Source: a virus. From it: a stretch of DNA of 64,000 bases. Both the position numbers and the translations under genes were made by a program. The notes beneath the pieces were generated by a model. The model ran no database searches. It was not told where the DNA came from and worked only from the letters and a program-made list of their open reading frames with translations. Of the stretch, positions 1 to 31,900 are shown in pieces (position 1 is the stretch's first letter; the number at the start of each line of letters is the position of its first letter). The stretch spans positions 1 through 64,000 of the IMG/VR virus record IMGVR_UViG_3300011980_000002; one strand, given 5' to 3'.

Positions 1-257
1 TCTCCACTCCCCCTCTATTACTTATATAGTATAATACAAAATAAAAAATAATTTATATTATATTACTCGGTAAAAAAAATATGAAAAATCCATTTTTCAA
101 TTTTCTCTATATATAATATAATAATATTATTATATCTTTTTTCAATCTTTTACCATTTTTTATCTCTTTCTCTCTTTTTATCATTCTCCACCCCCCCTTT
201 ATTATTATATATGTTTATATAATATAAAAAAATATTTTTTATAGATTTTAAAAAATG
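1..257. repeat. Left arm (IR-L) of a long imperfect inverted repeat; nt 1..77 are a perfect reverse complement of 3275..3351
   Basis: I reverse-complemented 1..77 by hand and it matches 3275..3351 exactly. Further blocks match up to about 257 (ttcaatttctctatata, taccattttttatctct, tatataatataaaaaaatatttttt..attttaaaaaatg). It contains the C-rich tract ctccaccccccc (186..197). Confidence 0.85.
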
Positions 258-533
258 ATAAATTGATAAAAAGAAATGGTTCGCCTTATGATATAACATA
301 ATAACATACTATATTACTTAATAATACTATTGTATTTGTTATATTTGTATATTGATTATATCATATCTGTTTATTCTTTATTTACTATAATACATTGAAT
401 TTTTTTTGGACTCCCCCTATTTACATTATTGTTTATAAATTATTTTTTATATTGAATATAATGAAATTTATTAGATAATTTATATATTATATATTTAGAT
501 ATATTATAGAAAGGATTAATGGTGTAATTAATT

Positions 534-998
534 ATGTCTAAAAAGAAAATTAAGAAGAAGAAAATTAAAGATGTTAAATTTGAAAGACCTGTACCAAAAA
601 ATGAAAGAGGTTTATTAGCAGATATAGATAAGAATATTGTGGAACAATATTTAGCATTGGAACAAGATATATCAGATTATCAATATCAATTATACTTAGC
701 AGATAAAAAGACTAAAAAGAAATATAAGAAATATCAAAAGAAAGGTAAACTATTTTATATATCAGATTCTCCTTCCGTTAAGAAGAAGATGGAGATTATT
801 AAGAGTATGGAAGAACATAACTTTTTAGAGACTTGTATTAAGACATTTAATGATATGAGACCAATATTAAAATTACTTGGAAGAACTGTTGCATTATTAT
901 TAACAGCTCTATTATCTATAGATGCTATTAAAAGAAGTATTAAACCTGAAACAATGTCTATGATAGACACTATATTCAATCTATCAATGGCATTATAG
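534..998 (+). CDS. Hypothetical Lys-rich protein with a hydrophobic C-terminal segment
   Basis: ORF of 154 aa. N-terminus is MSKKKIKKKKIK and the C-terminal stretch LLGRTVALLLTALLSI is hydrophobic. GAAAGGA lies upstream. It is the first gene of the IR-flanked cassette. Confidence 0.5.
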   Translation: MSKKKIKKKKIKDVKFERPVPKNERGLLADIDKNIVEQYLALEQDISDYQYQLYLADKKTKKKYKKYQKKGKLFYISDSPSVKKKMEIIKSMEEHNFLETCIKTFNDMRPILKLLGRTVALLLTALLSIDAIKRSIKPETMSMIDTIFNLSMAL

Positions 999-1023
999 AA
1001 AAATATTATGAAAGGTTTAATAT

Positions 1024-1452
1024 ATGAGCATATATGTATTATTGGACAGGTTTAAAAGACCTATTGCATATCATACTAAAAAGAAAGTAATATTTAAGTA
1101 TTATGATAATATTAATAGAGATGATGTGTATGTTGCTAAGACGAATAAAAAACCTATAGACTATGAAGAACTGTATTTAGTTAAATATGGTTCTTCTTAT
1201 GTTCCTAATAACTTAATAACCACATTAGAGGTTATGAATGATGATGAACAACAAGCTTATAGAGATATAATTAATATTATAGATAGTGAAATAGAATTTG
1301 GTAATATTTCTAAAGATGATATTAAATATCTTAACAAAACTGCTAAGTATTTTAAGAATAAAATTAAAGAAATTAAAAATAGACCAGTATCCGAGCAACT
1401 GGTCAGTGAATATAAAAATATGTTAGAATCATTTAAAAGCAAATTCTACTAA
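1024..1452 (+). CDS. Hypothetical protein
   Basis: ORF of 142 aa, closely following the previous gene with GAAAGG upstream. I recognised no motifs. Confidence 0.5.
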   Translation: MSIYVLLDRFKRPIAYHTKKKVIFKYYDNINRDDVYVAKTNKKPIDYEELYLVKYGSSYVPNNLITTLEVMNDDEQQAYRDIINIIDSEIEFGNISKDDIKYLNKTAKYFKNKIKEIKNRPVSEQLVSEYKNMLESFKSKFY

Positions 1453-1592
1453 TAGAGAATTTACTAGAGATAAAGATAATTGGCTTATTAAAGGTCAATT
1501 ATCTTTATTTTTTATAATAACCCCATATATTTACCGAAAAACATAACCATAAGCATATATTAAAAATAAATATGAAAGGTAGATCAATAAAA

Positions 1593-1856
1593 ATGGGAAA
1601 CACAACTGATTTTATTTATGACATAATGCAAGATTTAGTATCATACGGATTGACTATCTATAAAGATGGTATTTACTTTATAGAGAGATTTCCAATCTTT
1701 TATAAGATAAATAAATATCTTAAATTAGATAATAATAATTATAATAATATGATAGAAGAATTATCTTCTAAATATAATGTAGAATTTGAGTATGATAATG
1801 ATAATGATCAATATGTATTTATGTACAGGAACGCAGTATTTAAATTAGTTGAATAA
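1593..1856 (+). CDS. Hypothetical protein (the track ORF starts at 1572; ATG 1593 has the better RBS)
   Basis: The in-frame ATG at 1593 is preceded by TGAAAGG. The ATG at 1572 has no SD. Confidence 0.45.
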   Translation: MGNTTDFIYDIMQDLVSYGLTIYKDGIYFIERFPIFYKINKYLKLDNNNYNNMIEELSSKYNVEFEYDNDNDQYVFMYRNAVFKLVE

Positions 1857-1929
1857 AAAAATGATTAATCCATAATTGTATTTATTTTAATAATTATAAT
1901 TTTTTAATGAAAGGAGTCTTTCTCACATT

Positions 1930-3021
1930 ATGCGAAATATATTCGATGAAATAAATTTAGAAATTGATAATGTGATAAATGAACAATTCTCCGTTGGTAC
2001 GATGTTACCAATTGTACCATTAGAAAATAATAGAGTTAGGGATACTACGATTGCATCTGAATTTAAAGAAATAGATTATGCAAAAGAAGTAGAAGATACT
2101 ATTAGTAAAATTAATGGAGATGAGATTAACAGATTATCACCACCTTCAGATGTTTCCGGTTATGAAGGTAAAAGAATGACTGTGGATTTATTTAAGAATA
2201 GTAATCCAAGTACTAATGATAAGGAATTAATACTTACAGCTAATTATGTAAAATCCATGTGTAGTTCTTATACAAGTAAATTCCAGAATTTAGTTCCAAT
2301 AGAGAATCTGGAGCACAGTTATAATACTACCATGGGGTCAGAGTATAATGAGTCTATACTATTATCATTTAAAAAACTATTTGATGATTTATATAATAAC
2401 CCTAATGGATACTATCCGGTTAAATTTAATGGAAGAATATTCTTTGTATTAAGAAACGATAATGATGTAATTCATGTAGAATTTATTGATGACACTGCAA
2501 GAAGAAATGCACTTTATTACATGACATGGTTATCCATGTTTAATGATTTAAAGTCTAAGCAATTCTTAAATTATCTTTCTTCTATAAAGAATTATCAATC
2601 TTCTATTAATGTGGAAATTACTAATCCTGATGAAGAGAATAAAGATAGCGTAATCAAAGAGTCAAGAGATATCTCTCCGGAGATACAAGATGTAGTTACA
2701 TTATTAAATAATAAAGGATACAAGACAGTATCATCTTCTCCAGGATATGAGAAGTATAGAAATAAGAGAGATACTTATAAAGATGGAATTAAGTATGATT
2801 CATTATATACTACTGCAAGAATAGTATTTGAAGAAGATTACGATATATCAGCTCCCCCAGGATGGGAAAAAAGAAAGTTTGATGGTAAAATAGGAATATA
2901 TCCAGAACCAAGAAAATATAGATACAAGGATGGTGTTCCGGATAAAGCATTTGAAGAATGGAAAAATGACTATATGTCAACATTAAGAGGATGGGCTGAA
3001 AAGTTAAAATCTATCAATTAA
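1930..3021 (+). CDS. Hypothetical protein, 363 aa
   Basis: Long uninterrupted ORF with GAAAGGAG upstream. It is the last gene of the IR-flanked cassette. Confidence 0.6.
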   Translation: MRNIFDEINLEIDNVINEQFSVGTMLPIVPLENNRVRDTTIASEFKEIDYAKEVEDTISKINGDEINRLSPPSDVSGYEGKRMTVDLFKNSNPSTNDKELILTANYVKSMCSSYTSKFQNLVPIENLEHSYNTTMGSEYNESILLSFKKLFDDLYNNPNGYYPVKFNGRIFFVLRNDNDVIHVEFIDDTARRNALYYMTWLSMFNDLKSKQFLNYLSSIKNYQSSINVEITNPDEENKDSVIKESRDISPEIQDVVTLLNNKGYKTVSSSPGYEKYRNKRDTYKDGIKYDSLYTTARIVFEEDYDISAPPGWEKRKFDGKIGIYPEPRKYRYKDGVPDKAFEEWKNDYMSTLRGWAEKLKSIN

Positions 3022-3074
3022 AAAATTAATGTATATAGTACTATCTATATAAAAAATATTTTTAGTGCTATATA

Positions 3075-3351
3075 CATTTTTTAAAATTTAAAAAAATATT
3101 TTTTTATATTATATATACATATATATAATAAAAGAACATGGTGAAAGGGGGAAAGGGAGAGAAGAAAAAGAGAAAGAGATTGAAAAGAGATAAAAAATGG
3201 TAAAAAGATATTATATATATATATATATTATATAGAGAAATTGAAATGGCATATTTTTTATATTATTATAGCAATTTTTTACCGAGTAATATAATATAAA
3301 TTATTTTTTATTTTGTATTATACTATATAAGTAATAGAGGGGGAGTGGAGA
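3075..3351. repeat. Right arm (IR-R) of the inverted repeat paired with 1..257
   Basis: 3275..3351 is the exact reverse complement of 1..77. The inner part is imperfect and includes a purine-rich block (3137..3207). Confidence 0.85.
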
Positions 3352-3470
3352 AGCTCGGGGGTGGATAAAAGAGAGAAAGAGCGAAGAAAGGGAAAAGAAG
3401 AGAGAAAGAAAGAGAGAGAAATAAAAAAAGAGAAAGAGATGGAAAGAGATAAAAAATGGTATAAAAAAAA
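3352..3470 (+). repeat. Purine-rich block, a direct repeat of 3137..3207 and an inverted copy of about 136..197
   Basis: The core gagaaagagat(t/g)gaaa(a)gagataaaaaatggta occurs at 3170..3203 and 3431..3463. Its complement taccattttttatctctttc occurs at 151..170. A G5 tract precedes both direct copies. Confidence 0.75.
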
Positions 3471-3851
3471 TTAAACATGAGAATACGCATTTTAATCTAT
3501 TATCAATTTTTTATGTAAGCATATATAATGATAAAAGATCATTATCAATATAGATAATTTTTTTATTATTATATATACTTATATATTAATAAACGCGTAT
3601 AAGAAATATCTGAATGATTTTACATAGAATAATGCAAAAAACCATATCCAGATGTATTTTTTGATTAACCTGTTATTTTTCAATTATCCATTGCACACAC
3701 TCTATCAAGGAATTAAAAAAATAAATTTAAGATATCATATTCTAAAGGTTTTTGATATATACGCATTTATTAAATTAATTTATAACCAATACTAGATAAA
3801 ATTCTAGTATTGGTTAATTTTATCCGACTTTTATCGAGTTTTGCCGCCGCG

Positions 3852-3877
3852 GGAAATAACCCCTTCGGGATTTCCCT
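3852..3877 (+). terminator. GC-rich hairpin with a UUCG-type loop followed by TTTTT
   Basis: In gggaaataaccccttcgggatttccc, gggaaat pairs with atttccc and ccc pairs with ggg around a ttcg loop, followed by taacttttt. It is a conspicuous GC island (gccgccgcggg) in AT-rich noncoding DNA. Confidence 0.4.
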
Positions 3878-3929
3878 AACTTTTTGAGAAAAATATGTGA
3901 ATTGATAAAATTTGTAAAAAAATAAATTT

Positions 3930-4008
3930 TCAGTAGATAGTAAAAATCAATTTCGTATATATTATTTTTATAAAAATAATATAGTGAATTGAAATTACTA
4001 TCTACTGA
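3930..4008 (-). terminator. Long hairpin downstream of minus-strand gene 4074..4835
   Basis: The arms tcagtagatagtaa (3930..3943) and ttactatctactga (3995..4008) pair. On the minus strand a T-rich run follows (complement of 3911..3929). Confidence 0.5.
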
Positions 4009-4073
4009 ATTTTTTAATCAAAAATATCTGGAATATTCGGATTGAGCTGATTTTTTATCAATTTCTCTATAAT

Positions 4074-4835
4074 CTATTTAATAACAATACCTTTTGGTAT
4101 ATCAAGATGGTAGTTATTATCCCAATCCTCTAATAATGAATTTCGATTATTTCTTGCATCTGCCCAATCATCAATTTTAAGATTAATATTACCATATACG
4201 GTTTCTATACCATCCCAATGCTTTGCTAATTGATAAAATGCATCTTGTACATCATACAATGCTAATTTAAAAAATGATGGTTCTGCTGTCAATGGAATTG
4301 TAGATAATGACTTATGATGTTCAAATGCTAATTCTATACATATTCCATTAGACATTATTAAATCGTAAAGTATCAATGTACAAGGTTCAATAAAGTCAAA
4401 TGTTAATTTTGGATACATGTTACTTTGTAATTGACTAGCTGCATTTGTCAACATCATTTGTTGCATCATATTAATACCCGCATAAGGCATAATTCCATTA
4501 AATCCATATCCACTCATTCCGGTATAAGTAGAATTTCCACTATTACCATTATATTGAACATCTGATACAGTTATTAGATGTCTATTCTTAAATTCCGGTA
4601 ATATATAACCAACTCCATTTCTTTCATTATTATCATACTCTTCTGCTCTTTGTAAATCGTTTACATCTACATATAATAAATCATAATATGGTTGATAAAC
4701 AGAAAAGGTTGGTACTGTGGTTATCTCTATAACTTCTCTAATAAAATCATCTACATTATCTACCGGTAAATGAATACCGTATATTCCCATAGACATTTTT
4801 ATTCTGGTTATTTCTCTTGATAAATTTATTGCCAT
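4074..4835 (-). CDS. Hypothetical protein (possibly a virion component)
   Basis: ORF of 253 aa with AGAAAGGGA 7 nt upstream on the minus strand. I recognised no catalytic motifs. Confidence 0.6.
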   Translation of the reverse strand: MAINLSREITRIKMSMGIYGIHLPVDNVDDFIREVIEITTVPTFSVYQPYYDLLYVDVNDLQRAEEYDNNERNGVGYILPEFKNRHLITVSDVQYNGNSGNSTYTGMSGYGFNGIMPYAGINMMQQMMLTNAASQLQSNMYPKLTFDFIEPCTLILYDLIMSNGICIELAFEHHKSLSTIPLTAEPSFFKLALYDVQDAFYQLAKHWDGIETVYGNINLKIDDWADARNNRNSLLEDWDNNYHLDIPKGIVIK

Positions 4836-4972
4836 TTTTTATGATCCCTTTCTATAAGAATTAGATAATTGTCGTTATATGTCAATATCAGTAATGACTA
4901 CTATAATTAAAAACATTGATGTAAAGATACCCCCTAAATAAAAATCAAAAGAAAGATGAGGTGTAGAACTCT

Positions 4973-5263
4973 ATGAATTTTTTAAAAAGAGTTGATTGGT
5001 TGAATGTTCCAACTGGTACTTATGTTAGGTATTTATTAGCAATCCTTGCGGCTGTTAATGTAATACTTAATGCATTTGGGCTTAAGGCTATCATACTTGA
5101 TGATTCTAAGGTTTATGACGTTGTAAGTGCAGTTATCTTTATACTGATATTATTCGTTAATACTTATAAGGATAATCCAACTTCACCAGAGGCTATAGAG
5201 TCTAATAAGTTTATGAAGAGACTTAAGGCTGAAAATAAGATCAAAGAACAAGAACACCCTTAA
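4973..5263 (+). CDS. Small membrane protein, holin-like
   Basis: 96 aa with two hydrophobic stretches (YVRYLLAILAAVNVILNAFG and VVSAVIFILILFV) and a charged C-terminal tail. The layout resembles phi LC3-type holins as I remember them. Confidence 0.45.
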   Translation: MNFLKRVDWLNVPTGTYVRYLLAILAAVNVILNAFGLKAIILDDSKVYDVVSAVIFILILFVNTYKDNPTSPEAIESNKFMKRLKAENKIKEQEHP

Positions 5264-5408
5264 TTTTTAGATAGAATAAGGTGTTTTCAAAAGAATTTAA
5301 ATTATGAGATATGATACTGATTATAAAGGTATCATATCTCATAATTTTATTTACTTTTATATACTATTACTATATATATTGAATAAATTAATAAAGGTGT
5401 TGTAATAG

Positions 5409-5612
5409 GTGAAATGCATGGACGATAATATGTGTAACGATTTAATGATCAATATGATAGATAGGATATTAGAATTGTCTGAATATATTGATCATGATAG
5501 ATGTATGAGTAAAAAAGATTATAAGAAAAGAATTAAGTATTTAAAGAAGATTAAAAAGAAAATAGAGAAAGGTGGAATATATGCATATAGTAAAGAAAGA
5601 AATTATCCATGA
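5409..5612 (+). CDS. Hypothetical small basic protein
   Basis: 67-aa ORF with a GTG start after AAAGGTG. Its stop overlaps the next start (ATGA). Confidence 0.4.
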   Translation: MKCMDDNMCNDLMINMIDRILELSEYIDHDRCMSKKDYKKRIKYLKKIKKKIEKGGIYAYSKERNYP

Positions 5613-6163
5613 ATAAAGAAAAGACTTATAGATATTATTTGATTTATATTAAGCCAGAATATTATTCATTAATACCAGACCAATATAAATCAAGTTTAAA
5701 TAATTCTTTTACGATGCTTTATGCTTATACAGATAATAAGAAATATTTAAATAAATTTTTAGAATATCGAAATAAGAATTATTATTATATAATAAAGAAA
5801 GATTTAACAAGAGAAGATGTTAACTTCTTATGTAAAGACTATCAGAATTATATAATAAGAAAGAAGAAAGTTACTTCAAGATATAATGTAACTAAATCAT
5901 GTGATAAAGATTTTTATATAACAGAAAAAGAGCATAATATAACTCTTAATTATATCTATCATATATTAAGTGAAGATATGTGGTTATTATCATACGATAA
6001 TATTATTGATATATTTACCGAAGAGTATAAAGAAATATTAACTATATTAAGATTTGATAAGTTACATGATAGACTTAATGAGGGTAATTTAAATTTTAGT
6101 GATTTTATGATACCGGATTTTATTGGTAGTTATATAGAAATCTTTAAGAGTATTTTGATATGA
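5609..6163 (+). CDS. 'LYAxT' paralog family member 1
   Basis: The N-terminal pattern YRYYLIY...TMLYAYTDNKKYLNKFLEYRN is shared with 6195, 6847, 7167 and 50258. Confidence 0.6.
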   Translation: MNKEKTYRYYLIYIKPEYYSLIPDQYKSSLNNSFTMLYAYTDNKKYLNKFLEYRNKNYYYIIKKDLTREDVNFLCKDYQNYIIRKKKVTSRYNVTKSCDKDFYITEKEHNITLNYIYHILSEDMWLLSYDNIIDIFTEEYKEILTILRFDKLHDRLNEGNLNFSDFMIPDFIGSYIEIFKSILI

Positions 6164-6194
6164 TTAAGAAAAGAAAGGAAGTTAGAGAAATTCA

Positions 6195-6809
6195 ATGTCT
6201 AAAGAATATGTGAAAGTATATCTATTCTTTCTAAATAATATTAATATATACCACGAAGTTCTTTATAGATATGGGAATGAATTAGAAAATGAGTATATAA
6301 AAGATTCTAAGTTATTATATGCATGGACATCTAAAAAGAAACTTATGAAGAAATATGCTAAATTAAGAAAAGATATCTTTGATATTATGTCTATTAATAT
6401 AGATATATCTAAGTATAATGACTTTGCAGAAACTTATGAGTTACAAGAAATAATAGATAAGAAGTTTACTAATACTAATGAGAGATTATATCCAACATTA
6501 TATGAGTATACATTAATAGAGGATTATTTTAATGATACTGTATTCATTACATTATCAGAATACACTAAAACATATCCGATGATATTTAAGGATATATATC
6601 GAGAGATGCTAGACATAATATTATATAATAATTCATATTTTATGAGCGAATACTCGTATGAAGATGCTACAGAGGACGAGGAACTATATAGGTATAATTT
6701 AGGTTATGCTATTACTGGGGAGTATGGATATAATCTTACAGATATATTAGATATGATAGATAGAGTAACTCTATATAAATATATCTTCACAGATATATTA
6801 TTAAATTGA
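6195..6809 (+). CDS. 'LYAxT' paralog family member 2
   Basis: VKVYLFFL...KLLYAWTSKKKLMKKYAKLRKDIF. Confidence 0.6.
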   Translation: MSKEYVKVYLFFLNNINIYHEVLYRYGNELENEYIKDSKLLYAWTSKKKLMKKYAKLRKDIFDIMSINIDISKYNDFAETYELQEIIDKKFTNTNERLYPTLYEYTLIEDYFNDTVFITLSEYTKTYPMIFKDIYREMLDIILYNNSYFMSEYSYEDATEDEELYRYNLGYAITGEYGYNLTDILDMIDRVTLYKYIFTDILLN

Positions 6810-6846
6810 TAATTATTATAATGGATAAAAAAGGAGAAAAAGAAAT

Positions 6847-7164
6847 ATGAAAATACGTTGCTTTTATTTAAAATCAAATGATAAGAATAATTTATATGCT
6901 GTCACTATTGATAGAAGTACAGCTAGAGAATTTATGAATAGTAGAGATATGAGTAAATTTATATTTGATGAAATGGAAATTCCTAATGATGATGCCAAAG
7001 ATTTTCTATTGAAAAATGAGTATTGTGAGTTAAGACATAAAATTCTGACTGATATAGATATGGAGTCTCAAAGAGTTGTAGTTATGACAAAGAAGGAATT
7101 TTCATTATTGAAGAATTATACATATCAAGAGTTCTCTGAATTACATAAGGATTTATTAAAGTAA
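6847..7164 (+). CDS. 'LYAxT' paralog family member 3 (short form)
   Basis: IRCFYLKSNDKNNLYAVTIDRSTAREFMNSRDM. Confidence 0.6.
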   Translation: MKIRCFYLKSNDKNNLYAVTIDRSTAREFMNSRDMSKFIFDEMEIPNDDAKDFLLKNEYCELRHKILTDIDMESQRVVVMTKKEFSLLKNYTYQEFSELHKDLLK

Positions 7165-7166
7165 TC

Positions 7167-7745
7167 ATGATATTACATAGATTTTATTTATATGATAAAA
7201 ATATGAGTAAGAAAGATTATATGAAACTTACTAACGGAAGTAATGATAGGAAGCATCTTTATGCTGTTACTACTAATAATAAATTTTATAAAGAATTTAT
7301 TAAGGAAAGAAATATGGATATTTTCATCCATATAAAGAGTAGAGTGAGTAAACAAGAAGCTTCCTATTATATTAATAATCATTACTCATGTAATTTATCT
7401 AGGAATGAATTAGCATATTACCCATATAAATCTAAAAATGATAAATATCGAGTAGATACTCAGGTATTATGTACTAATACAGAAATAGAATCTGTAAGAA
7501 CTATTTCCGATATGTATTACTTAACATTTAATGGAAATTTATCAGATTTCATAAATCCAAAAATATTTAAAGAAGAATATCTTCATAGTTTAATTATGTT
7601 AGATTATTTAACATTAATGAATATTTCTGGAGTAGTAAATTTTCATAACTCATATGATGGTAATTCTGAAATTCCGGATTTACCATCCATATTATTAGAT
7701 GAATTTATGATATTCATAGATTTATATGGGAAGTTATATAAATAA
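7167..7745 (+). CDS. 'LYAxT' paralog family member 4
   Basis: LHRFYLYDKN...KHLYAVTTNNKFYKEFIKERNMDIF. Confidence 0.6.
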   Translation: MILHRFYLYDKNMSKKDYMKLTNGSNDRKHLYAVTTNNKFYKEFIKERNMDIFIHIKSRVSKQEASYYINNHYSCNLSRNELAYYPYKSKNDKYRVDTQVLCTNTEIESVRTISDMYYLTFNGNLSDFINPKIFKEEYLHSLIMLDYLTLMNISGVVNFHNSYDGNSEIPDLPSILLDEFMIFIDLYGKLYK

Positions 7746-7802
7746 CTATATCATTCGACAATGATATAGTTATTTTTTTTATATAGAAAGGTAAATTTTA
7801 TT

Positions 7803-8465
7803 ATGAGTAAAAATAATATAGACATTATAAAATTACCAAAGACAGAAAATATGGAATATAGTGTAGATTATGAAACTCCAAAGTCTAAAAGGAAGTTTAT
7901 TGAAAGATGTAAAAGAACTATAAGGAAGTCTAAAGAGTATAAAGATTATATAAGATTTTTAAAAGATAATCTTGATATGGATAGATGTGCATTCTTTAAC
8001 CAGGTTCATAAAAATAAAGGTATGAGAGTATCTATAGAAATACATCATGAACCATTTGTATTAGAAGACATCGTACAGATTATTATAGAGAAACATCTTC
8101 ATGAAGGAATTACTTTAAATGAATTAGAAATTGCTGATGATGTAATGAAATTACATTATGAGAATAAAGTAGGACTAATTCCTTTATCTAAGACTTTACA
8201 TGAGTTATATCATAATACTACAGGGGAAAATAAATTATTCATTCCAATTTATATGTGCTATGGTAATTATGCAGAATTCATTAAAGAGTATTGGGATTAT
8301 ATGGATGACCAATTAAAGCTTAAAATAGAGAAAAAAATAGAAGAGTCTAAGAATGTAAAACCGGAAGACTATGAAAAACTATTGGAAGCAAAGTTCCAAT
8401 ATATAGAAATGGATGGTGTAGATTTACCAAAGAAGATGGAAATAGAAGAAGAAATGATAGCATAA
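7803..8465 (+). CDS. Conserved His-motif protein, paralog of 52470..53123
   Basis: It shares the pattern Y..Y(I/A).LK......(R/K)C......(V)SIE(I/M)HH.P with the other copy, plus later H-rich positions (LHELYHN vs VHEEVHT). This may be a metal-binding or HNH-like fold. Confidence 0.55.
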   Translation: MSKNNIDIIKLPKTENMEYSVDYETPKSKRKFIERCKRTIRKSKEYKDYIRFLKDNLDMDRCAFFNQVHKNKGMRVSIEIHHEPFVLEDIVQIIIEKHLHEGITLNELEIADDVMKLHYENKVGLIPLSKTLHELYHNTTGENKLFIPIYMCYGNYAEFIKEYWDYMDDQLKLKIEKKIEESKNVKPEDYEKLLEAKFQYIEMDGVDLPKKMEIEEEMIA

Positions 8466-8466
8466 A

Positions 8467-8523
8467 AATAGATGATATAGATAACTTTAGTTTACATATA
8501 CTAAGTTATCTATATCATCTATT
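8467..8523 (+). terminator. Hairpin terminator
   Basis: 21-nt arms aatagatgatatagataactt / aagttatctatatcatctatt, followed by a T-rich tail. Confidence 0.6.
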
Positions 8524-8715
8524 CTATTTTTTGTTAAAAATTATCTATTCAATATTTTTTGTTTATAAAGAAAAGTGTGAGAATATGTTAGTAGGGAAAA
8601 ATAATTCCATATTTAATATTCTTTTATTCAGATGTTATAAATATATATTATTAAAATAGATGCTTAGATTGCCTTAGAATAGGACAAATAGAAAGGAGCT
8701 AGTTTAAGAATAATT

Positions 8716-10089
8716 ATGAGCGGTATTATATTTAATGCCTCTAAAACAAAAGTAATCGTAGACCCAGAAACTGGAGAAGAAATAATAGAAGAACCTAAAG
8801 TCCAAGAAAGGTCTAATGATATAGAGGTAAAGAAAAATAGATTTAGATTTAATGATGAGAAAAGAAAGGAATTAGAAGAATTATATTCAACAGTGGTAGT
8901 TAGAGATTTTGAAGATAATTACCATAAGAAAATTACTACAACATCTCAAGATGTAATTGATGCATATAAGACTATTGGAAGGATGAAATCTAAGTATAGA
9001 AATATCGAAGAGTATATTGTGGTAATGAGAAAATGTGTAGATTTCTTAAAAGTAATTGCTTCTAAGAATACCCTTATTATGAAACCAGAAGAATTTGTAT
9101 CACGAGCATTAAAACGAAAGATACAAATATTTGGTTTTAACCCACCAAAATATATTGGTAGTGATAGAAAAGATATTAACTGGAATGAGGTTGCTAAGTA
9201 TGTATGTGATAAATCATTAGACCCAAATGATTTATCTATACGTAGTAAAGAAATATCTTATTTGGAAGATGATGAATTTGAATCAGATGAAGCAAGACTA
9301 AAGCATTATTTCTCACCAGACCAAATTAAAGAAATATTTGGTAAGAAGATTAATCATTCCGTTACAATGGGATATGATGAAGACTTAGATAAGAAAGGTC
9401 TCGGTTTAGTAACAGCATTCTCTAAGAAAGAAATTAAGAGAATGAATAAAGATATGCCTGAGCTTAATAGAATAATTAAAGATTATAATAAGAAGATGAG
9501 AGCTGAGGATAATCTATTACAATATGCGTATGAGATAGAATCTGATGCATTTGATATTATAAGAAAGATGGATGAGAAGAGAGGATTCTTTAAGAAAGAC
9601 AAATTACCAAAGTTCAAAGGTAAGTTAACATCTAGTAAAGATATTAAGAGATATCTTTATGAATTAGAGAAGTATAGAGAGGAACATGAGTATGTAAATT
9701 ATCGTGGTAATATGATGACCTTGGAAGAATACAATGATGCTAAGACTAAAGATAAGTTAGATGAAGCAGGTTGGAATGTAAGAAAGCTCTATAGAGATAA
9801 AGCTGAGGAGAAGAAACAAAAAGAAGATGAGAAAATGTATAGAGCTAAAGAGAAGAGGTTAAAGAAGAAGTTAGAGAAATTAGATATGAAATACAAAAGA
9901 GAAACAGGTCAGCCATTAGATGAGTATTATATTAATAAAGAAAAGAAGAAAGCTAAAAAGAAATCTAAGAAAAAAGCAGATAGATTTGCCGATTTAGCTA
10001 GTAAAGAAGTATCTAATGGAAAGCATAAATCATTCTCTGAATATGAAGAAGAGATGATGAATATGACTTGGTCTTTTGGAAAGGAGTAA
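8716..10089 (+). CDS. Hypothetical K/E-rich protein, 457 aa
   Basis: Long ORF with GAAAGGAG upstream. The C-terminal third is highly charged and looks coiled-coil-like. Confidence 0.6.
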   Translation: MSGIIFNASKTKVIVDPETGEEIIEEPKVQERSNDIEVKKNRFRFNDEKRKELEELYSTVVVRDFEDNYHKKITTTSQDVIDAYKTIGRMKSKYRNIEEYIVVMRKCVDFLKVIASKNTLIMKPEEFVSRALKRKIQIFGFNPPKYIGSDRKDINWNEVAKYVCDKSLDPNDLSIRSKEISYLEDDEFESDEARLKHYFSPDQIKEIFGKKINHSVTMGYDEDLDKKGLGLVTAFSKKEIKRMNKDMPELNRIIKDYNKKMRAEDNLLQYAYEIESDAFDIIRKMDEKRGFFKKDKLPKFKGKLTSSKDIKRYLYELEKYREEHEYVNYRGNMMTLEEYNDAKTKDKLDEAGWNVRKLYRDKAEEKKQKEDEKMYRAKEKRLKKKLEKLDMKYKRETGQPLDEYYINKEKKKAKKKSKKKADRFADLASKEVSNGKHKSFSEYEEEMMNMTWSFGKE

Positions 10090-10102
10090 TAATAAGAAGT
10101 AA

Positions 10103-11050
10103 ATGAAAAGAAGAATTGTTAGTAAAATAATTGATATCTTTAAACCCGAGATATTAATTAAACTAAATGAAATAAGTTATCAAGCAGAATCGAACAAGGC
10201 TAAGGGTGACATGATAGCTAACCTTTTAACTGAATATAAAATAGAAAGGTTTCTATTAGGTTCTGGTACCAACAGACTAGGAGTTCAAATTGGTGATACT
10301 GTGTTTAAGATAGCCTTGGATAAACATGGTAAAACTGATAATAAACGAGAGTTTAAATATACAGATAAATTGCAACCATATGTAATTAAAGTATATGAAT
10401 GTACTTTTGATGGATTAGTTGCAGCGTGTGAACCGTTTATACCGATGTCACAATCAGATTTCATTGAGAATAAAGAAGGAATAATAGAGATATTAGCAGA
10501 TATCTCGAGGAATTTCTTTATTGGTGATATTGGATATCTTCCGGATAAGAATTATGCAAACTGGGGTTTTAGAAAGACCGATAATTCTATCGGTATATTA
10601 GATTTTGCATATATCTATTCTGTAAACTATAATACCTTTACTTGTACTTGTGAAGGAAAACCATTTCTTTACTATGATGATAACTATGTCAAATTACTAT
10701 GTCCCGCTTGTGGTAGGAAATGGGAATTCAAAGAAATAAGAAAACGTATTAAAAAGGAGGACGAAGAAAAAGAGATTGGAGATATAATGGAATTATCATA
10801 TAATGTAAAAGAGTATGAAAATACTGTAGAGGTTAATGATAATTATACAAGGTCTATTTATACTGACATAAGAGAGCAAGAATTAGAGAAATCTAAGAAG
10901 ATGGCTACTAAACATCGTATAAGAGAAATAATGAGAAAGGCTGATGAAAGAAGAAATAAATCATTTAATGAATTTGAATTAGATGACCCGAGAACTTTCG
11001 ATGAACTCATTAAGTGTATTAAAAGTAGACCTGATGTAAAGACTATCTAA
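10103..11050 (+). CDS. Putative protein-kinase-like protein with an internal Cys4 zinc ribbon
   Basis: It has a Gly-rich loop plus Lys (LGSGTNRLGVQIGDTVFKIALDK), a catalytic-loop-like segment GDIGYLPDKNYANWG and a DFG-like ILDFAY. These are followed by CTCEGK...CPACG. Confidence 0.4.
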   Translation: MKRRIVSKIIDIFKPEILIKLNEISYQAESNKAKGDMIANLLTEYKIERFLLGSGTNRLGVQIGDTVFKIALDKHGKTDNKREFKYTDKLQPYVIKVYECTFDGLVAACEPFIPMSQSDFIENKEGIIEILADISRNFFIGDIGYLPDKNYANWGFRKTDNSIGILDFAYIYSVNYNTFTCTCEGKPFLYYDDNYVKLLCPACGRKWEFKEIRKRIKKEDEEKEIGDIMELSYNVKEYENTVEVNDNYTRSIYTDIREQELEKSKKMATKHRIREIMRKADERRNKSFNEFELDDPRTFDELIKCIKSRPDVKTI

Positions 11051-11138
11051 ATATTTAGATAGTCTTGAATATTTATATAAGGTATATATACTATTTATCT
11101 TGAATAAGGATTTTATATAAAGGAAAGGAAAAAAAGAA

Positions 11139-12287
11139 ATGTCTAAGAAGAAAAAGAAACATAAAAAAGTTAGATTTGTATCAAGTATTAATGTATCCTC
11201 TAAGGGTTTTAATAGTCTATCTAACGATGATAGAGAAGTACTAGCTCAGCAATTATATGAGCTTCGTCAAGCAATGGAAAACGGTGATGTCGATACAGCT
11301 ATGAATGAATTTGAAAATATGAGTTCAGATAATAATGAATCATATACAGAGAATTCTATAGATAATATGATATCGGATTTCTTATATGGAAATACTACAT
11401 CTAATAATAGATGTGATTGTACTAATTCATATAATGAACCGGTTTTCCAAGGTGATAGAGTATTAAATAATAATAAACCTTCAGATACTGATGGTGATAT
11501 CAATCTGTATAGGTATGGTATAAAACATTTAACAGCTCAGACAGATGCTGAAATTAATAATTATATCGCAGATGCCTTATCTGATAATAATAAAGATATA
11601 GATAATGAAGAAGATGAAGATTTTGATGATGAGTATATAACTTGTGATTTAATTACTCATGCAATGAAATCTTATTCCAATGAATTATTTAGTCTTGATA
11701 ATGATACTATCGTTAGTGAAATTGATAATTTCACAGAAGTTATGAAAACCGCGGAAAGGATATATGTAAAAATGTTACTAGCAAATGGATTAGATGTTGA
11801 AAATATATTACTGTTAAGAAAGAGGATGTTTGAAGACATGGGACTTAAAATGCCGGAAGAAATTTCAAATATAGAGTTAGCAAAAGCAAAACTCTATGGT
11901 GATAATGAGACAACAAAATCAGTAAATGATAGTAAACCAGAAGTTAATGAAGAGATAATTAATAATGAACCTGAAATAGAAGAACCTGAAGAAGTTGAAG
12001 ATGATGAGGATTTAGACTTAGATGATAACGGTTGGTCAGATATATCAGTTAATAATTCTACTGAGGAGATATCTGAAGAGATTTCAATGAATATAAAGAA
12101 AGAACCAGAACCTGAAAAACCTAAACCATCTGAAGAGCCTAAACCAACTGTGGAAAATAAACAACCTGAAAAGAAACCTGAAGAACCTGTAGTTCACAGA
12201 AAGACACCAATTGGTGCTCATGTAGAAACTATTAGTGACGAGGAATTAGACAGTGTTGTTATTATGCCACATAGAAGAAAGTCATAA
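11139..12287 (+). CDS. Acidic low-complexity protein
   Basis: 382 aa with D/E/N-rich tracts and a PE/PK-rich tail (EPEPEKPKPSEEPKPTVENKQPEKKPEEP). Confidence 0.55.
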   Translation: MSKKKKKHKKVRFVSSINVSSKGFNSLSNDDREVLAQQLYELRQAMENGDVDTAMNEFENMSSDNNESYTENSIDNMISDFLYGNTTSNNRCDCTNSYNEPVFQGDRVLNNNKPSDTDGDINLYRYGIKHLTAQTDAEINNYIADALSDNNKDIDNEEDEDFDDEYITCDLITHAMKSYSNELFSLDNDTIVSEIDNFTEVMKTAERIYVKMLLANGLDVENILLLRKRMFEDMGLKMPEEISNIELAKAKLYGDNETTKSVNDSKPEVNEEIINNEPEIEEPEEVEDDEDLDLDDNGWSDISVNNSTEEISEEISMNIKKEPEPEKPKPSEEPKPTVENKQPEKKPEEPVVHRKTPIGAHVETISDEELDSVVIMPHRRKS

Positions 12288-12320
12288 GATTTCTATAAGG
12301 TGATTTTAAATTTACATAAT

Positions 12321-12382
12321 AATTAAGTTATAGTGAACTTATTTAGATACGAATATTATCTAAAATTCACTATAACTTAATT
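12321..12382 (+). terminator. Hairpin terminator
   Basis: 17-nt arms aattaagttatagtgaa / ttcactataacttaatt. Confidence 0.55.
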
Positions 12383-12415
12383 ATACTTTTATTATATAGA
12401 AAGGGATAAATTATT

Positions 12416-13072
12416 ATGTCCTTATTATTAATGACTGATAGTAAATTTAATGGTAAGTATTTAAGACATGAGTCTGAAGATACTATAAAAGATACAACTA
12501 TAGTTGTATTATCTGATAAAGTAAGATTAGATGATGAGTTTAGGAGTCAGATTGTAGATGGTTCTCATGCTTTACCGTCAGTTACCACTATAATGGAAAT
12601 AGATGGTGATAGTGATGTTAAACTAAGTTCCAATAGCTCGTATATTAATCATTACTATGAAGAATTAGAAAGTGAGCATATGTTATTTTTCGCTAGACTA
12701 ATTTATATGGTAATTACTAATTCCAAGAAGATGTTTCTTATTGTTACATCTGATAAAGAAGATATGGGATTAAATCTCTTAAAGATAATTGGTAATTGGA
12801 TATATAAGAAGTTTAAGTATCATGCTCATGTATATAAAAAATCATATGATAATTTATTAGATATAAATGTAAAAGTAGATAAGATTGAGAAGAAATGTAT
12901 AAAGAATATTTCTAAGTTTAAGAAAACTTATCCTAGAAAATATTATGAGGGAATTACTAATAAAGAATTCAAATTTGAAGCAAAGAAATTTGGAGTATGG
13001 GATAAGTATAGAAATAGAGCAGATATGATAGAAGATATCTTGTTCTTAATAGATATGGAAGATGGTAAATAA
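12416..13072 (+). CDS. Hypothetical protein
   Basis: ORF of 218 aa with GAAAGGGA upstream. Confidence 0.55.
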   Translation: MSLLLMTDSKFNGKYLRHESEDTIKDTTIVVLSDKVRLDDEFRSQIVDGSHALPSVTTIMEIDGDSDVKLSSNSSYINHYYEELESEHMLFFARLIYMVITNSKKMFLIVTSDKEDMGLNLLKIIGNWIYKKFKYHAHVYKKSYDNLLDINVKVDKIEKKCIKNISKFKKTYPRKYYEGITNKEFKFEAKKFGVWDKYRNRADMIEDILFLIDMEDGK

Positions 13073-28935: not shown

Positions 28936-31900
28936 TTAATAATCATCTTCTCTGAAATTAGTTTGTCTAATCTCTTCTTCTACATTGTAGTTTAACATCA
29001 ATCCACTATTTACTAAATCAGATCTTAATCCCATTCCTATTAGATAGGTATCTACCGTATTTAGTGTAGTTTTATTTTTTACATCATAAGTTAAATCTTG
29101 ATATCTTACATATCCATTAGTAGCAATCTGTTGCATCATTTCATACTTAGCAACTCTATCATCTGCTCTAGGACCATTTAGTTCTTTTAATGTATCTTCC
29201 AATCCAACTGATACCATTAAGATATTCTCTAAGTCAGTTTCTCTACCATTCTTATCTCCACCAGTAACCTGTCCAGTTAATTCAGATACACTTGTACTAT
29301 TAATACTCATACCATTTTTCTTCATTACTGTCTGTTGTGTTCTCTTAATATGGATATATCCAACTGGTACAGGATTTTGTGTTCCAATTACCATATCTTT
29401 ATCCATAGTCATATGAGGCAAATATACAGTTTCAAATAATGGTATCTTAAGTACATTGGCAGCTCTTTCAATATCTTCTATCTTCATAGTATGCTCATAA
29501 TCAACTATATCCAATATAAGATATTCTTTATCGTTATTAAAGAACTCTTTAAAGAATTTATTAAACTCAGTATCTTCCATACCATCAAATATACCTTTAT
29601 ATTTTTTGGTATTAGTACCAGACTTATCAAAAGCTGTGAAGAATTTATATATTAAATCTTCCATATTCTTTCTTACAGCCGGACTAAATGGAGCTGATTT
29701 ATAAATCTTCTCTAATGACCTTTTTAGTTCTACAATACATTTATTTCCTAAACACATAACGATTATAGATGGTACCATACGTTTAAGAATAGAGTTAGAT
29801 GCAATTATAGTAGATATTTCTTCATCTGGTCTAAATTCACCATATGGTTCATAACCCTCTGGAACTATTTCTCCTATAGTATTTTTAAGAGCAGAGAAGT
29901 TAGCTATCTTACTACCAACCTCTAACGGCTCACTATGTTTAATGTAGAATTCTACTAATACGGAATCATCTACTTTATTACCTTTAATTACTCCATACTT
30001 AGATGGTTTAATAGCACCAGTAGGGTCTGTTATTAACATACCACATTTATAGATACTATCGGACTTGTCATACTTATCAAGTAATTTCTTTTTATCACTT
30101 ACCTTATCATAGTACTTCTTAATTATCTTTCTTAAAGATGGAGACATCTCTTCTAATTCTACAGTAGAATACACTTTAATATCTTCTATAACTCCACTAT
30201 ATTTAGATTTAATAATATTCTTACTACCAGCATCGATAGCATCTTTTATAGTAGGGTCTTTAGATAGAGTATCTAAGAAAGCATTCAACGATGCATCTTC
30301 AAATGAAGTGTCAAACTCTAATAATGAATCTCCAATTTGTATATGGTCTCCAACTTCTACCATTTTAAGTATATTGGAATTCTTACCGATATTAGCAGCT
30401 TTTTGGAATGTCATTTCTGTACTAGCTTCTCTTGCTAATTTGTGAGTAATAAATGTGGAGTCTTCCAATGTGTTATAAGTAGACATTAGTGCTACCTTAG
30501 TTAAAGTACCCAAGTTTAATCTACATCCATTGATATCTGACTTAGTAAAGAAATCTTTATTCCACGCTAATGGTTGATTAACTGTAAATTTCTGTCCTAC
30601 CTTTAAATCTGTAGTTAGTATATTAGACTCATAGAAACCACCACCACCATTCTTAACTATAACTGGAGCTAAGTTAATGGCTTGATGTTCCCCATTCTTA
30701 TATTCTACTACCATGATTTTTTTATTCTCATCTATCTCTAATACTTTACCATTATCTTTAGCATTAACAACAAAGTCTGTAGATAGATGATAACGACAAG
30801 CTTCCTCTACACCATTAGAAATTAATACAGGAGAAGAATTCTCTACTGGGATAACATGCTTAGACTGCTTTATAGCATGACCAATTCTTATTGGGTCATC
30901 ATATGTAGCTGCTGTAGGCATAGTTAATTCACCAGGACTAAATAAGTTAGCATCTTTTAAACTATCCAAATCTTTATCATCAGTCACCTTCATATAACCT
31001 CTAACTGAAGTTATATTAGGTTCTAAGGTTAGTACTCTACTAACACCTACTGAAGCATCTGGAGATGATATTGGTGATAGAATACCAGTCATTGTCTTAT
31101 CATAACATCTCTTAGGTACACTATAAGCATCGTCTAAGTTTATACCTCTCCAACCTTTATAAGAAGTAGTTCTACATCTTTCTAATTCTTGTACAGGGTT
31201 AAGTGTAGAATAATCTTCTACATTAGGAGATGATAATAATTTAGTAATTACACTATCTCTTGGTATATTAAATTTCTTTCTACCATTAGAATTCTTATAT
31301 GTGATATAATTCTTAGCTATTGTATCATATAATATAGCAGGAATAGTTTCTATAGACCTTATTCTTGCTAAATTTTGATTCATCTCAAAAGTATATTGAT
31401 TATCTGCTAATAGCTTAACTGCATATATTATAAGACTAACTATATCAGTAGGAAGATTCATATCGGTTAAGATTTCTTTAGTAATTGGGTCTATAGTAAA
31501 TTCATAAGTATTATCTAATGCATTAGCGATAGACATTTTTCCATATACTTGTAAGAATAATCTTAAATATGGTTCACTACTATCCATGTCTGCAAATGTA
31601 TATTTTTCAGTCTCTATAACTCTTAAACCATTGATCATTAAACCATATTCAGGTTTATCTTGGTATATCATATAACAATCACTAAACCTTATATAATTTT
31701 CATTAATCTTTAAATCATTAGGTTTCTTATCTGATATACGATATTCAAGATTCATTTTCTTAAGTACTGTAGACAATCCTTCCCATGCGCTACATAACAT
31801 AATCGCAGGTAAGTCTTTACCCATAGTCTTAATCTTTCCATACATTAATCTTTTTCCAGGTTTAACTGTTTTATATTCTTTAATTAATGCTTCATCATTA

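Follow-up and report, generated by a model that had tools for sequence, protein, structure and literature searches.

Does the four-gene cassette at the start of this viral DNA turn over between its flanking genes, and if so, what turns it? The stretch analysed (the window: 64,000 nucleotides of IMG/VR virus record IMGVR_UViG_3300011980_000002, positions 1 to 64,000) opens within a long inverted repeat whose two arms enclose the cassette. Comparison with related contigs shows that the cassette and the inner parts of its arms have inverted repeatedly during the recent diversification of the phage. These inversions are probably the work of homologous recombination between the arms, carried out by the phage's own UvsX-type machinery and near-neutral in effect.

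An inverted-repeat search of the window found nucleotides 1-77 to be the exact reverse complement of 3275-3351, as an earlier note made from the sequence of the window had reported. The longest exact inverted repeat in 100 dinucleotide-preserving shuffles of nucleotides 1-6000 averaged 15 nt and never exceeded 20 nt, which places a 77-nt repeat far above chance. Imperfect complementarity continues beyond this core to about 272 on the left and about 3059 on the right. The imperfect repeat of about 260 bp described in the note is thus present, but the arms proper are about 0.7-1.0 kb each and pass the window edge. Their extent was given by a contig of 223,074 bp (ena:ERZ27279295:k119_143363, here locus L001) that encodes the protein of the fourth cassette gene, gp4. 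Positions 8072-21092 of L001 are 100% identical to window 1-13021, and the contig extends at least 8 kb upstream of position 1. The locus lies at about 143-147 kb of the 223-kb contig, and position 1 of the window at about 146.6 kb. Position 1 is therefore an arbitrary cut that truncates the left arm; it is not the repeat boundary that the note had taken it for, nor the genome end that had been offered as an alternative. The ends of a sister genome (scaffold_38 of ERZ28634329, 216,112 bp) are identical over 55 nt, so that it closes as a circle.

In L001 the perfect core measures 89 nt (window -11..77 against 3275-3363), on which ground the idea that 77 nt marks an assembly end at k = 77 was rejected. 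The left arm corresponds to L001 7659-8343 (window -412..272) and the right arm to window 3059-4025; they are about 83-90% identical in the window genome, the right arm being longer by about 270 nt. The module as a whole reads R81 (an 81-nt palindromic sequence considered below), an imperfect inverted arm of about 0.7-1 kb, the four-gene cassette, the mirror arm and R81 again. The four plus-strand open reading frames (ORFs) placed between the arms by the note were all recovered. Its "third" purine-rich block, at 3352-3470, proved to be ordinary right-arm sequence, misread as extra because the window edge hides its left-arm partner. That partner, at L001 ~7960-8071, lies just left of the window, where the note had proposed to look for one. 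In total there are four purine blocks, two per arm, and each arm is built of a tandem pair of units, about 260 nt long, that combine a conserved AT-rich block with a run of G and a purine tract. The 64 kb contain the motif AGAGATAAAAAATGGTA three times only, at 151-167 (-), 3186-3202 (+) and 3445-3461 (+), and purine runs of at least 30 nt occur in the window only at 3143-3179 and 3383-3421.

The module lies between two late-type genes that converge on it: g388 (388 aa), on the left and upstream of the window, and g253 (253 aa) on the right. A phiKZ-type prohead protease gene (Peptidase_S80) is located just upstream of the window. To compare orientations, contigs encoding members of the gp4 90% cluster (14 members) or the 253-aa flank protein were looked up; 16 of these reach across one arm or both, and they represent nine strains of 80-100% identity. 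Five strains have the orientation of the window (L001; L004/L128; L145, with L240; L147; L151/L152), the gene order being S80, g388 (+), cassette (+), g253 (-). The other four (L131/L132; L134/L136/L137; L140/L141; L149) have the inverted order g253 (+), cassette (+), g388 (-). By assembly, the former orientation is that of ERZ27279295 and ERZ27279310, the latter that of ERZ27320301, ERZ27319210 and ERZ21659590. When these contigs were compared by blastn with pieces of L001, the outer arm pieces were found to keep their own flank gene, with the cassette flipped. Both states occur on N-free MEGAHIT unitig contigs, the window-like state in L001 and L147 (k119) and L152 (k141), and the inverted state in L136 and L137 (k141). 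The longest perfect tract shared by the two arms in those strains is 34-89 nt, shorter than k, so the difference in orientation is not the assembler's choice. That the change has recurred is indicated by an identical 253-aa flank protein (P0167), which stands beside both orientations (L234 vs L235), and by the S80 protease gene, 714 nt of which are the same in L145 (window-like) as in L134/L136 (inverted). Fitch parsimony calls for three to four orientation changes on each of four neighbour-joining gene trees, and never for fewer than two in 400 bootstrap trees.

The position of the exchanges within the arms can be read from genome pairs of opposite orientation, in which flank-linked and cassette-linked identity were compared for each arm segment (16 comparisons). 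The outer arm segment is flank-linked in all 16 (89% vs 71% identity), whereas the variable inner segment is cassette-linked in 15 (60% vs 47%), as is the conserved block 7 in 12. Block 2, the outer pyrimidine tract and block 4 are linked to neither flank nor cassette. Since the outer segment stays with the flank and the inner segment travels with the cassette, the exchange must fall in the middle ~270 nt of the arms. This zone holds blocks 2 and 4 and, in the window genome, contains the 89-nt perfect tract.

A second line of evidence comes from aligning the four arms of the window genome (A) and of a collinear relative of about 80% nucleotide identity that has the same cassette between inverted arms (B; IMGVR_UViG_3300008575_000010, L004/L128). 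In the outer hairpin cluster, orthologous arms of A and B are 92-93% identical and paralogous arms 89%, the pattern of an old duplication that has not been homogenised. The inner segment shows the reverse (orthologous 86-87%, paralogous 92-95%) and is homogenised within each genome. In the middle segment either arm of A is 80-83% identical to the left arm of B, and the two arms of A are 98% identical to one another, which marks homogenisation within A. The right arm of B has unrelated sequence in the middle segment. Over the inner and middle segments, arms within a genome are 91.8-98.3% identical, against 80-87% for orthologous arms of the two genomes. Because paralogous arms are closer than orthologous ones, sequence has passed between the arms after the separation of A and B. 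Strains differ in the longest tract that their two arms share perfectly (34, 35, 42, 52, 60, 89, 97, 145 and 185 nt), and also in whether it falls in block 2, in the tract, in block 4 or in the inner segment. These shifts from strain to strain indicate repeated, ongoing gene conversion along the arms, of which they are the footprint.

As to the agent of inversion, no match to site-specific recombinase or transposase families was found in any window ORF of at least 120 aa (Resolvase, Recombinase and Phage_integrase were tested). The 8 kb upstream and the genes of L001 and L003 likewise have no invertase or transposase on record, which brings the total to about 72 kb around the locus. The note's observation that neither enzyme lies within or beside the cassette thus holds for the window and the 8 kb upstream, and so does its statement that the phage encodes a RecA-like recombinase of its own. 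The UvsX-like gene concerned is, to judge by its sequence, a candidate catalyst of inter-arm recombination.

On the account considered probable here, the inversions would be non-allelic homologous recombination (NAHR) events between the inverted arms. The UvsX-like recombinase, a Dda-like helicase and an SbcC-like nuclease of the phage would catalyse them during recombination-rich replication, and the same process would yield the patchy gene conversion that keeps the arms alike. Homologous recombination is favoured over a site-specific switch because the arms are of kilobase length, the conversion tracts are scattered, no invertase adjoins the segment and the recombination genes are T4-like. 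Either orientation would present an equivalent layout: on its upstream side the cassette would meet an arm, hairpins and a gene of its own direction, and on its downstream side an arm, a terminator that faces outward and a gene that converges on it. All four cassette genes point the same way, a non-coding arm of about 1 kb lies on each side, and the locus is mirror-symmetric between its convergent flanks. Given this symmetry of flanks and arms, the polymorphism is probably near-neutral rather than an on/off switch.

Several points weigh against this account. The recombinase search spans about 72 kb of a genome of about 220 kb, and an invertase may sit in the other ~150 kb; block 2 is partly dyad-symmetric and highly conserved, as a recombinase site would be. 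Near-neutrality is argued from the symmetry of the locus only. The orientation states are read from assemblies. The four gene trees are discordant, which implies recombination between strains, and this can spread a single inversion over several backgrounds, so that too many events may be counted. In four groups of contigs, each from one strain, orientation is the same throughout, which speaks against equimolar isomers; some of these contigs may be re-assemblies of one sample. Flipping therefore looks slow beside isomerisation of the herpesvirus type, or else assemblers report the majority form only. The flip-flop inversion predicted by the earlier note is thus borne out among close relatives, by the two orientations, the breakpoints in the arms and the gene conversion, but flip-flop within a population is not seen in the assemblies.

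Table 1. Elements of the module and its right flank, and the recombinase gene. Positions are those of the window unless L001 is named; the strand is left empty where none applies.
Feature	Position	Strand	Remarks
Perfect core, left copy	1..77		77 of 89 nt in the window, the other 12 nt left of position 1; includes block 4
Left (gp1-side) arm inside the window	1..272		middle and inner segments; outer ~410 nt with hairpin cluster at L001 7659-8071
Conserved block 4, left copy	16-37		TATTACTTATATAGTATAATAC; at least 85% conserved across 18 arms
Inner purine-rich block, left arm	137..195	-	purine strand is minus and reads outward
Conserved block 7, left copy	209..240		ATATGTNTATATAATATAAAAAAATATTTTTT; invariant in the four arms of genomes A and B; travels with the cassette
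Leader, left arm to gp1	273..533	+	unique; inside the inverted segment; alignment columns present only in gp1-side arms
Cassette gene 1 (gp1), 154 aa	534..998	+	Lys-rich N-terminus, hydrophobic C-terminal stretch; homologue kept in distant relatives
Cassette gene 2, 142 aa	1024..1452	+	ORF call
Cassette gene 3, 94 aa (87 aa as called)	1572..1856	+	ORF call
Cassette gene 4 (gp4), 363 aa	1930..3021	+	residues ~236-360 form a widespread uncharacterised C-terminal domain
Inner segment, right (gp4-side) arm	3059..3274		block 7 at 3091-3122; inner purine block at 3140-3202, its purines on the plus strand
Perfect core, right copy	3275..3363		89 nt; block 4 at 3315-3336; in the zone of inversion crossovers
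Outer purine block and block 2	3364..3497	+	purine 3364-3450; block 2 3451-3497, reverse complement TGATTAAAATGCGTATTCTCATGTTTAATTTTTTTATACCATTTTT; partner L001 ~7925-8059
Extra ~270 nt	3515..3782		largely limited to the g253-side arm; first ~85 nt adjoin g253 in both orientations, hence flank-linked
Terminator-like hairpin	3783..3816	+	CCAATACTAG stem and T tract; faces outward
G+C-rich hairpin cluster, outer arm	3839..3876		flank-linked in 16/16 comparisons; single occurrence in the window
R81, imperfect 81-nt palindrome	3929..4009		second copy L001 7676-7756, direct orientation, 100% identical
g253, virion structural protein, 253 aa	4074..4835	-	DUF7484 / phrog_18911; converges on the module; anchor for orientation calls
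UvsX/RecA-like recombinase	40252..41484	+	phrog_97, 1.7e-38; weak Pfam RecA, KaiC and AAA_25 hits

One rival reading is site-specific inversion by an enzyme of the Gin/Hin/Cin kind or a tyrosine invertase, encoded elsewhere in the ~220-kb genome and acting on block 2 or block 4, so as to vary expression of the cassette or of arm transcripts. When 18 arms from the nine strains were aligned, the conserved parts were the hairpin cluster, block 2 (TGATTAAAATGCGTATTCTCATGTTTAATTTTTTTATACCATTTTT), block 4 (CCCGAGCTTCTCCA...CTCCCCCTCTATTACTTATATAGTATAATA...) and block 7 (ATATGTNTATATAATATAAAAAAATATTTTT). Blocks 2 and 4 are at least 85% conserved, with variable purine/pyrimidine tracts between the blocks, and block 2, as read from its sequence, has partial dyad symmetry around an 8-nt spacer. 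That the crossovers map to the ~270-nt zone holding these two blocks would suit such a switch, as would the ~150 kb of genome lying beyond the recombinase search. Invertase genes normally adjoin the segment they act on, however, and none of their families appears in the ~72 kb around the locus; the arms, moreover, are of 0.7-1 kb rather than 14-34 bp. The conversion tracts run all along the arms and are strain-specific, as homologous recombination predicts, and genome B has one arm without blocks 2-4 yet keeps the rest of the repeat. The cassette is one gene set of one direction in which nothing alternates, and its mirror symmetry predicts no on/off effect. A site-specific switch is on these grounds unlikely, and a Mu G-type switch was rejected, no recombinase having been found in those ~72 kb.

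It is also possible, if doubtful, that the arms are functional cis-elements and that inversion is a side effect of their presence, a reading compatible with homologous recombination between them. They might form a replication origin, or paired outward units of promoter-like block, purine tract and terminator that give rise to GA-rich RNAs or R-loop primers. The arm elements are peculiar to this locus: motif searches of the 64-kb window found none of them at any other place, and purine runs of 30 nt or more are equally confined. The terminator-like hairpin of the right arm has a mirror counterpart in the left arm (L001 7894-7870, minus strand) that likewise faces outward, and genome B has at this position of its right arm a different hairpin, of 11 bp. 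The T4-like replication and recombination genes of the phage also fit such a role. Against it, the arms matched no Rfam family (all hits had E > 0.7, far under gathering thresholds), and sigma-70-like promoters are no commoner than chance (54 sites vs 45.4 expected). Cumulative GC skew makes no turn at the locus, and one arm of genome B lacks both the outer purine block and block 4. ORFs that gene callers place over the purine/pyrimidine tracts (e.g. 3323-3490 on the minus strand, 55 aa) were set aside as compositional artefacts, because a pyrimidine run cannot hold a stop codon, the callers disagree between strains and no ribosome-binding site is present. An exact scan of IMG/VR with the 15-mer CCCCGAGCTTCTCCA gave chance hits only, the sequence being too unspecific.

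Distant relatives bear on the cis-element reading as well. In L007, L129 and L130, whose g253 is 55-62% identical, g253 and homologues of the gp4 C-terminal domain and of gp1 stand in window-like order, and no inverted repeat was found at the locus. The place is taken by a different, repeat-filled non-coding region of about 1.7 kb upstream of the gp1 homologue (L007 15620-17300; L130 15704-17435), with a 130-bp tandem array of 4.6 copies, rich in CCTAGG, and many short repeats resembling TGACAATTTC. A 225-kb contig (ODXQ01000005.1) ends inside this region, which could itself act in cis, as an origin, a packaging site or a centromere for example. The survey of related genomes proposed in the earlier note thus yields close relatives with arms, and distant ones that have cassette homologues without the repeat. 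Because the gp1 and gp4 homologues occupy the same site in the repeat-free relatives, the cassette is ancestral there and is not an inserted mobile element.

The module is bracketed at its outer edges by the two copies of R81. In all eight genomes checked (L001, L004, L131, L134, L140, L147, L149, L151) these copies are direct repeats, 0-3 edits apart; scored as inverted repeats they are 14-16 edits apart. The arm sequence adjoining R81 is inverted and only about 89% alike. The copies of genomes A and B differ by about 15%, R81 having been homogenised within genomes. Being direct and near-identical, the R81 copies enclose arms and cassette between homogenised direct repeats. A contig of 2,586 bp (L241; ERZ28634124 scaffold_26594) joins g253 to g388 through a single R81 copy and is the exact product expected from deleting the 4.3-kb module via the direct copies; a second, similar contig exists. 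L241 may be a real deletion variant or a de Bruijn mis-join through the 81-nt repeat. Analogies between R81 and known recombination ends were rejected. For integron attC sites there is no recombinase in the ~72 kb around the locus and no R-box consensus, and for IS605 ends there is no R81 match at the TnpB insertion of L140/L147. That insertion, an IS605-family OrfB/TnpB (Cas12f-like) gene between the holin gene and g253 (L140/L141 322-1569; L147 7971-9211), is found only in some strains, in either orientation, and the window genome is without it.

A bolder construction, which we think improbable, would make the module a dedicated rearranging unit without a recombinase of its own, its mirror-image outward arm units (promoter-like block, GA-rich tract and terminator) serving as R-loop origins or GA-rich regulatory RNAs and its R81 copies allowing all 4.3 kb to be excised, as L241 suggests. 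If it were correct, inversion and excision would be selected, for instance because they set the direction of replication or transcription or rid the genome of the cassette.

That the repeat or the difference in orientation is an artefact of assembly is very unlikely. De Bruijn assemblers cannot orient segments between repeats longer than k, and a foldback chimera can mimic a repeat; many of the assemblies do break in the arms or give cassette-only contigs, the perfect tracts of L140/L141 and L145 (145 and 185 nt) exceed the usual SPAdes k, and scaffold L135 is probably chimeric with bacterial DNA. Yet the repeat, for which the earlier note had allowed such an origin, recurs in more than 10 independent assemblies made by different assemblers. 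Both orientations appear on the N-free MEGAHIT contigs described above, and random mis-orientation would not yield flank- and cassette-linked patterns coherent in 15-16 of 16 comparisons.

Least probable of all is that the module is mobile or a foldback element bounded by terminal inverted repeats, or else that it marks the end of the genome or resembles a telomere; the earlier note had raised both a mobile element and a genome end. Long inverted ends around genes without assigned function, the bracketing direct repeats and the excision-like join of L241 recall such elements, but no transposase or integrase was found among the window ORFs of 120 aa or more, the 64 kb hold no further copy of the arm sequences, 81-nt direct repeats are far longer than a target-site duplication, cassette homologues are syntenic beside g253 in the repeat-free relatives, and the sequence runs on past position 1 in a phage whose sister genome is circular.

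The proteins of the cassette had no Pfam or PHROG match, and none was found among Protein Data Bank (PDB) sequences. The C-terminal ~125 residues of gp4 recur at the C-terminal end of proteins whose lengths run from 165 to 1647 aa and which fall into 253 clusters at 50% identity, and no Pfam family covers this domain; among its distant homologues only DUF6582 or GNAT domains occur alongside. The AlphaFold2 model of gp4 is poor (pLDDT, a per-residue confidence score, 43.7 overall, and 70-86 only for the C-terminal domain), and a Foldseek search with it returned nothing under E = 0.05. A likeness to the C-terminal domain of T4 MotA was disregarded, its Foldseek probability being 0.1-0.2 only. 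The cassette proteins include no recognisable replication initiator by Pfam, PHROG, PDB sequences or Foldseek.

The window, at 26% G+C, is from an uncultured jumbo phage of about 216-223 kb, distantly of the AR9/PBS1 type. A DNA search with nucleotides 1-6000 found no match among 50,697 GenBank phages, and no tRNA genes were found in the window. Two multisubunit RNA polymerase (RNAP) beta/beta'-like proteins are encoded, at 28936-33879 (-) and 42585-44891. By the large RNAP subunit the closest cultured phages are Listeria LPJP1, Staphylococcus SA1, Yersinia phiR1-37 and Bacillus AR9/PBS1, at 31-36% amino acid identity. The protein at 28936-33879, of 1647 aa, matches several separate PHROG RNA polymerase beta families and a C-terminal "hydrolase" family, which suggests a fusion of subunits that are split in AR9/PBS1. 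The window also encodes a DnaB-like helicase, an SbcC-like protein, a Dda-like helicase, an SPP1-type holin and virion proteins. A tubulin/FtsZ-family (PhuZ-like) protein lies at 53286-54416 (Pfam Tubulin, 9e-15); jumbo phages that assemble a spindle or a phage nucleus encode such proteins. An HNH and NUMOD4 homing-endonuclease gene (46618-47430) lies directly upstream of a terminase-like ORF (47605-48891) that matches only part of large-terminase profiles, and the terminase gene may be split or invaded.

One scaffold, L135 (ERZ28634265 scaffold_1203, 1-2972), carries Leptotrichia-like chromosomal genes. Their junction with the phage arm, which has 14 nt of overlap, lies where the pyrimidine tract has its outer edge. 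The bacterial genes encode an HtrA-like protease, a DUF333 protein and a zinc alcohol dehydrogenase that is 97% identical in amino acid sequence to that of a Leptotrichia metagenome-assembled genome. The scaffold is probably chimeric; oral Leptotrichia (~29% G+C), to which it points, may be the host.

Natural structural polymorphism in phage genomes is usually credited to mobile elements or dedicated invertases. Here a block of genes has turned over on several occasions in nature, apparently through the phage's own homologous recombination, and the ~72 kb around it show no invertase; inverted and direct repeats alike bear the marks of homogenisation by gene conversion. The locus is thereby a natural read-out of recombination activity in an uncultured jumbo phage, and a defined system for measuring recombination in AR9-like phages, since both orientations and the deletion can be told apart with three primer pairs. 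Should the arm motifs turn out to be origins or RNA genes, they would be among the first cis-acting elements defined in this group of phages. The locus is also a systematic assembly breakpoint: assemblies break in the arms or at R81 (L127, L236, L242, L243, L145/L240), and cassette-only contigs of about 3.0-3.6 kb are found (L002, L133, L142, L143, L146, L148, L150, L153). Of these, L002 and L148 come from the Logan runs SRR1781914 and SRR1779403 and belong to the strains of ERZ27279295 and ERZ27279310, of which the two runs may be the read sets. In practice, a break or a wrong orientation at this locus is to be reckoned with in assemblies of such phages.

A literature search found no equivalent described in jumbo phages, and the parallels come from other systems. 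Polymorphic inversions of the human genome recur by NAHR between inverted repeats (PMC3961182). The present locus shares with them long imperfect inverted repeats, both orientations segregating, breakpoints inside the repeats, recurrence on different haplotypes, gene conversion between the arms and, on the account proposed here, the want of a dedicated recombinase. It differs in that a 3-kb segment of a virus is involved, with arms of about 1 kb and presumably UvsX-type catalysis, and in being known from assemblies only, without genotyping. The flip-flop of the chloroplast inverted repeat follows the same general principle as NAHR inversion. Among viruses, herpes simplex virus (HSV) inverts its L and S segments across inverted repeats without a site-specific invertase, in roughly equimolar isomers in every stock and over long, identical repeats. 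In both viruses a segment between inverted repeats inverts, in HSV by the replication and recombination machinery and here, as proposed, by the same means. Unlike those of HSV, the arms are 75-98% alike and each strain assembly has one orientation, implying much slower flipping. In the Halobacterium phage PhiH the L segment inverts by homologous recombination between two inverted copies of ISH1.8. There too a viral segment is inverted across long inverted repeats and variants of both kinds exist; the repeats of PhiH, however, are insertion sequences that encode a transposase, whereas the arms described here are non-coding and locus-specific.

The G segment of Mu and the C segment of P1 are inverted by the serine invertases Gin and Cin (van de Putte and Goosen 1992, as cited in PMC13501310). 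As in those phages, a segment of a few kilobases lies between inverted repeats, in two orientations and beside a virion structural gene. The Mu and P1 repeats measure 34 bp, the invertase is encoded next to the segment, and tail-fibre genes in two opposed sets provide a host-range switch. Here, by contrast, there is no adjacent invertase, the arms are of kilobase scale and a single one-way gene set offers no alternative product. Finally, bacterial invertons are known and "putative viral invertons" have recently been proposed from metagenomes (PMC13501310; PMC5903667), and they resemble the present case in that differences of orientation across inverted repeats are seen in metagenomic data. Those invertons are short promoter or intragenic segments that are turned by site-specific recombinases and found in both states within one population, whereas the segment described here comprises four genes over 3 kb and its state is fixed per strain.

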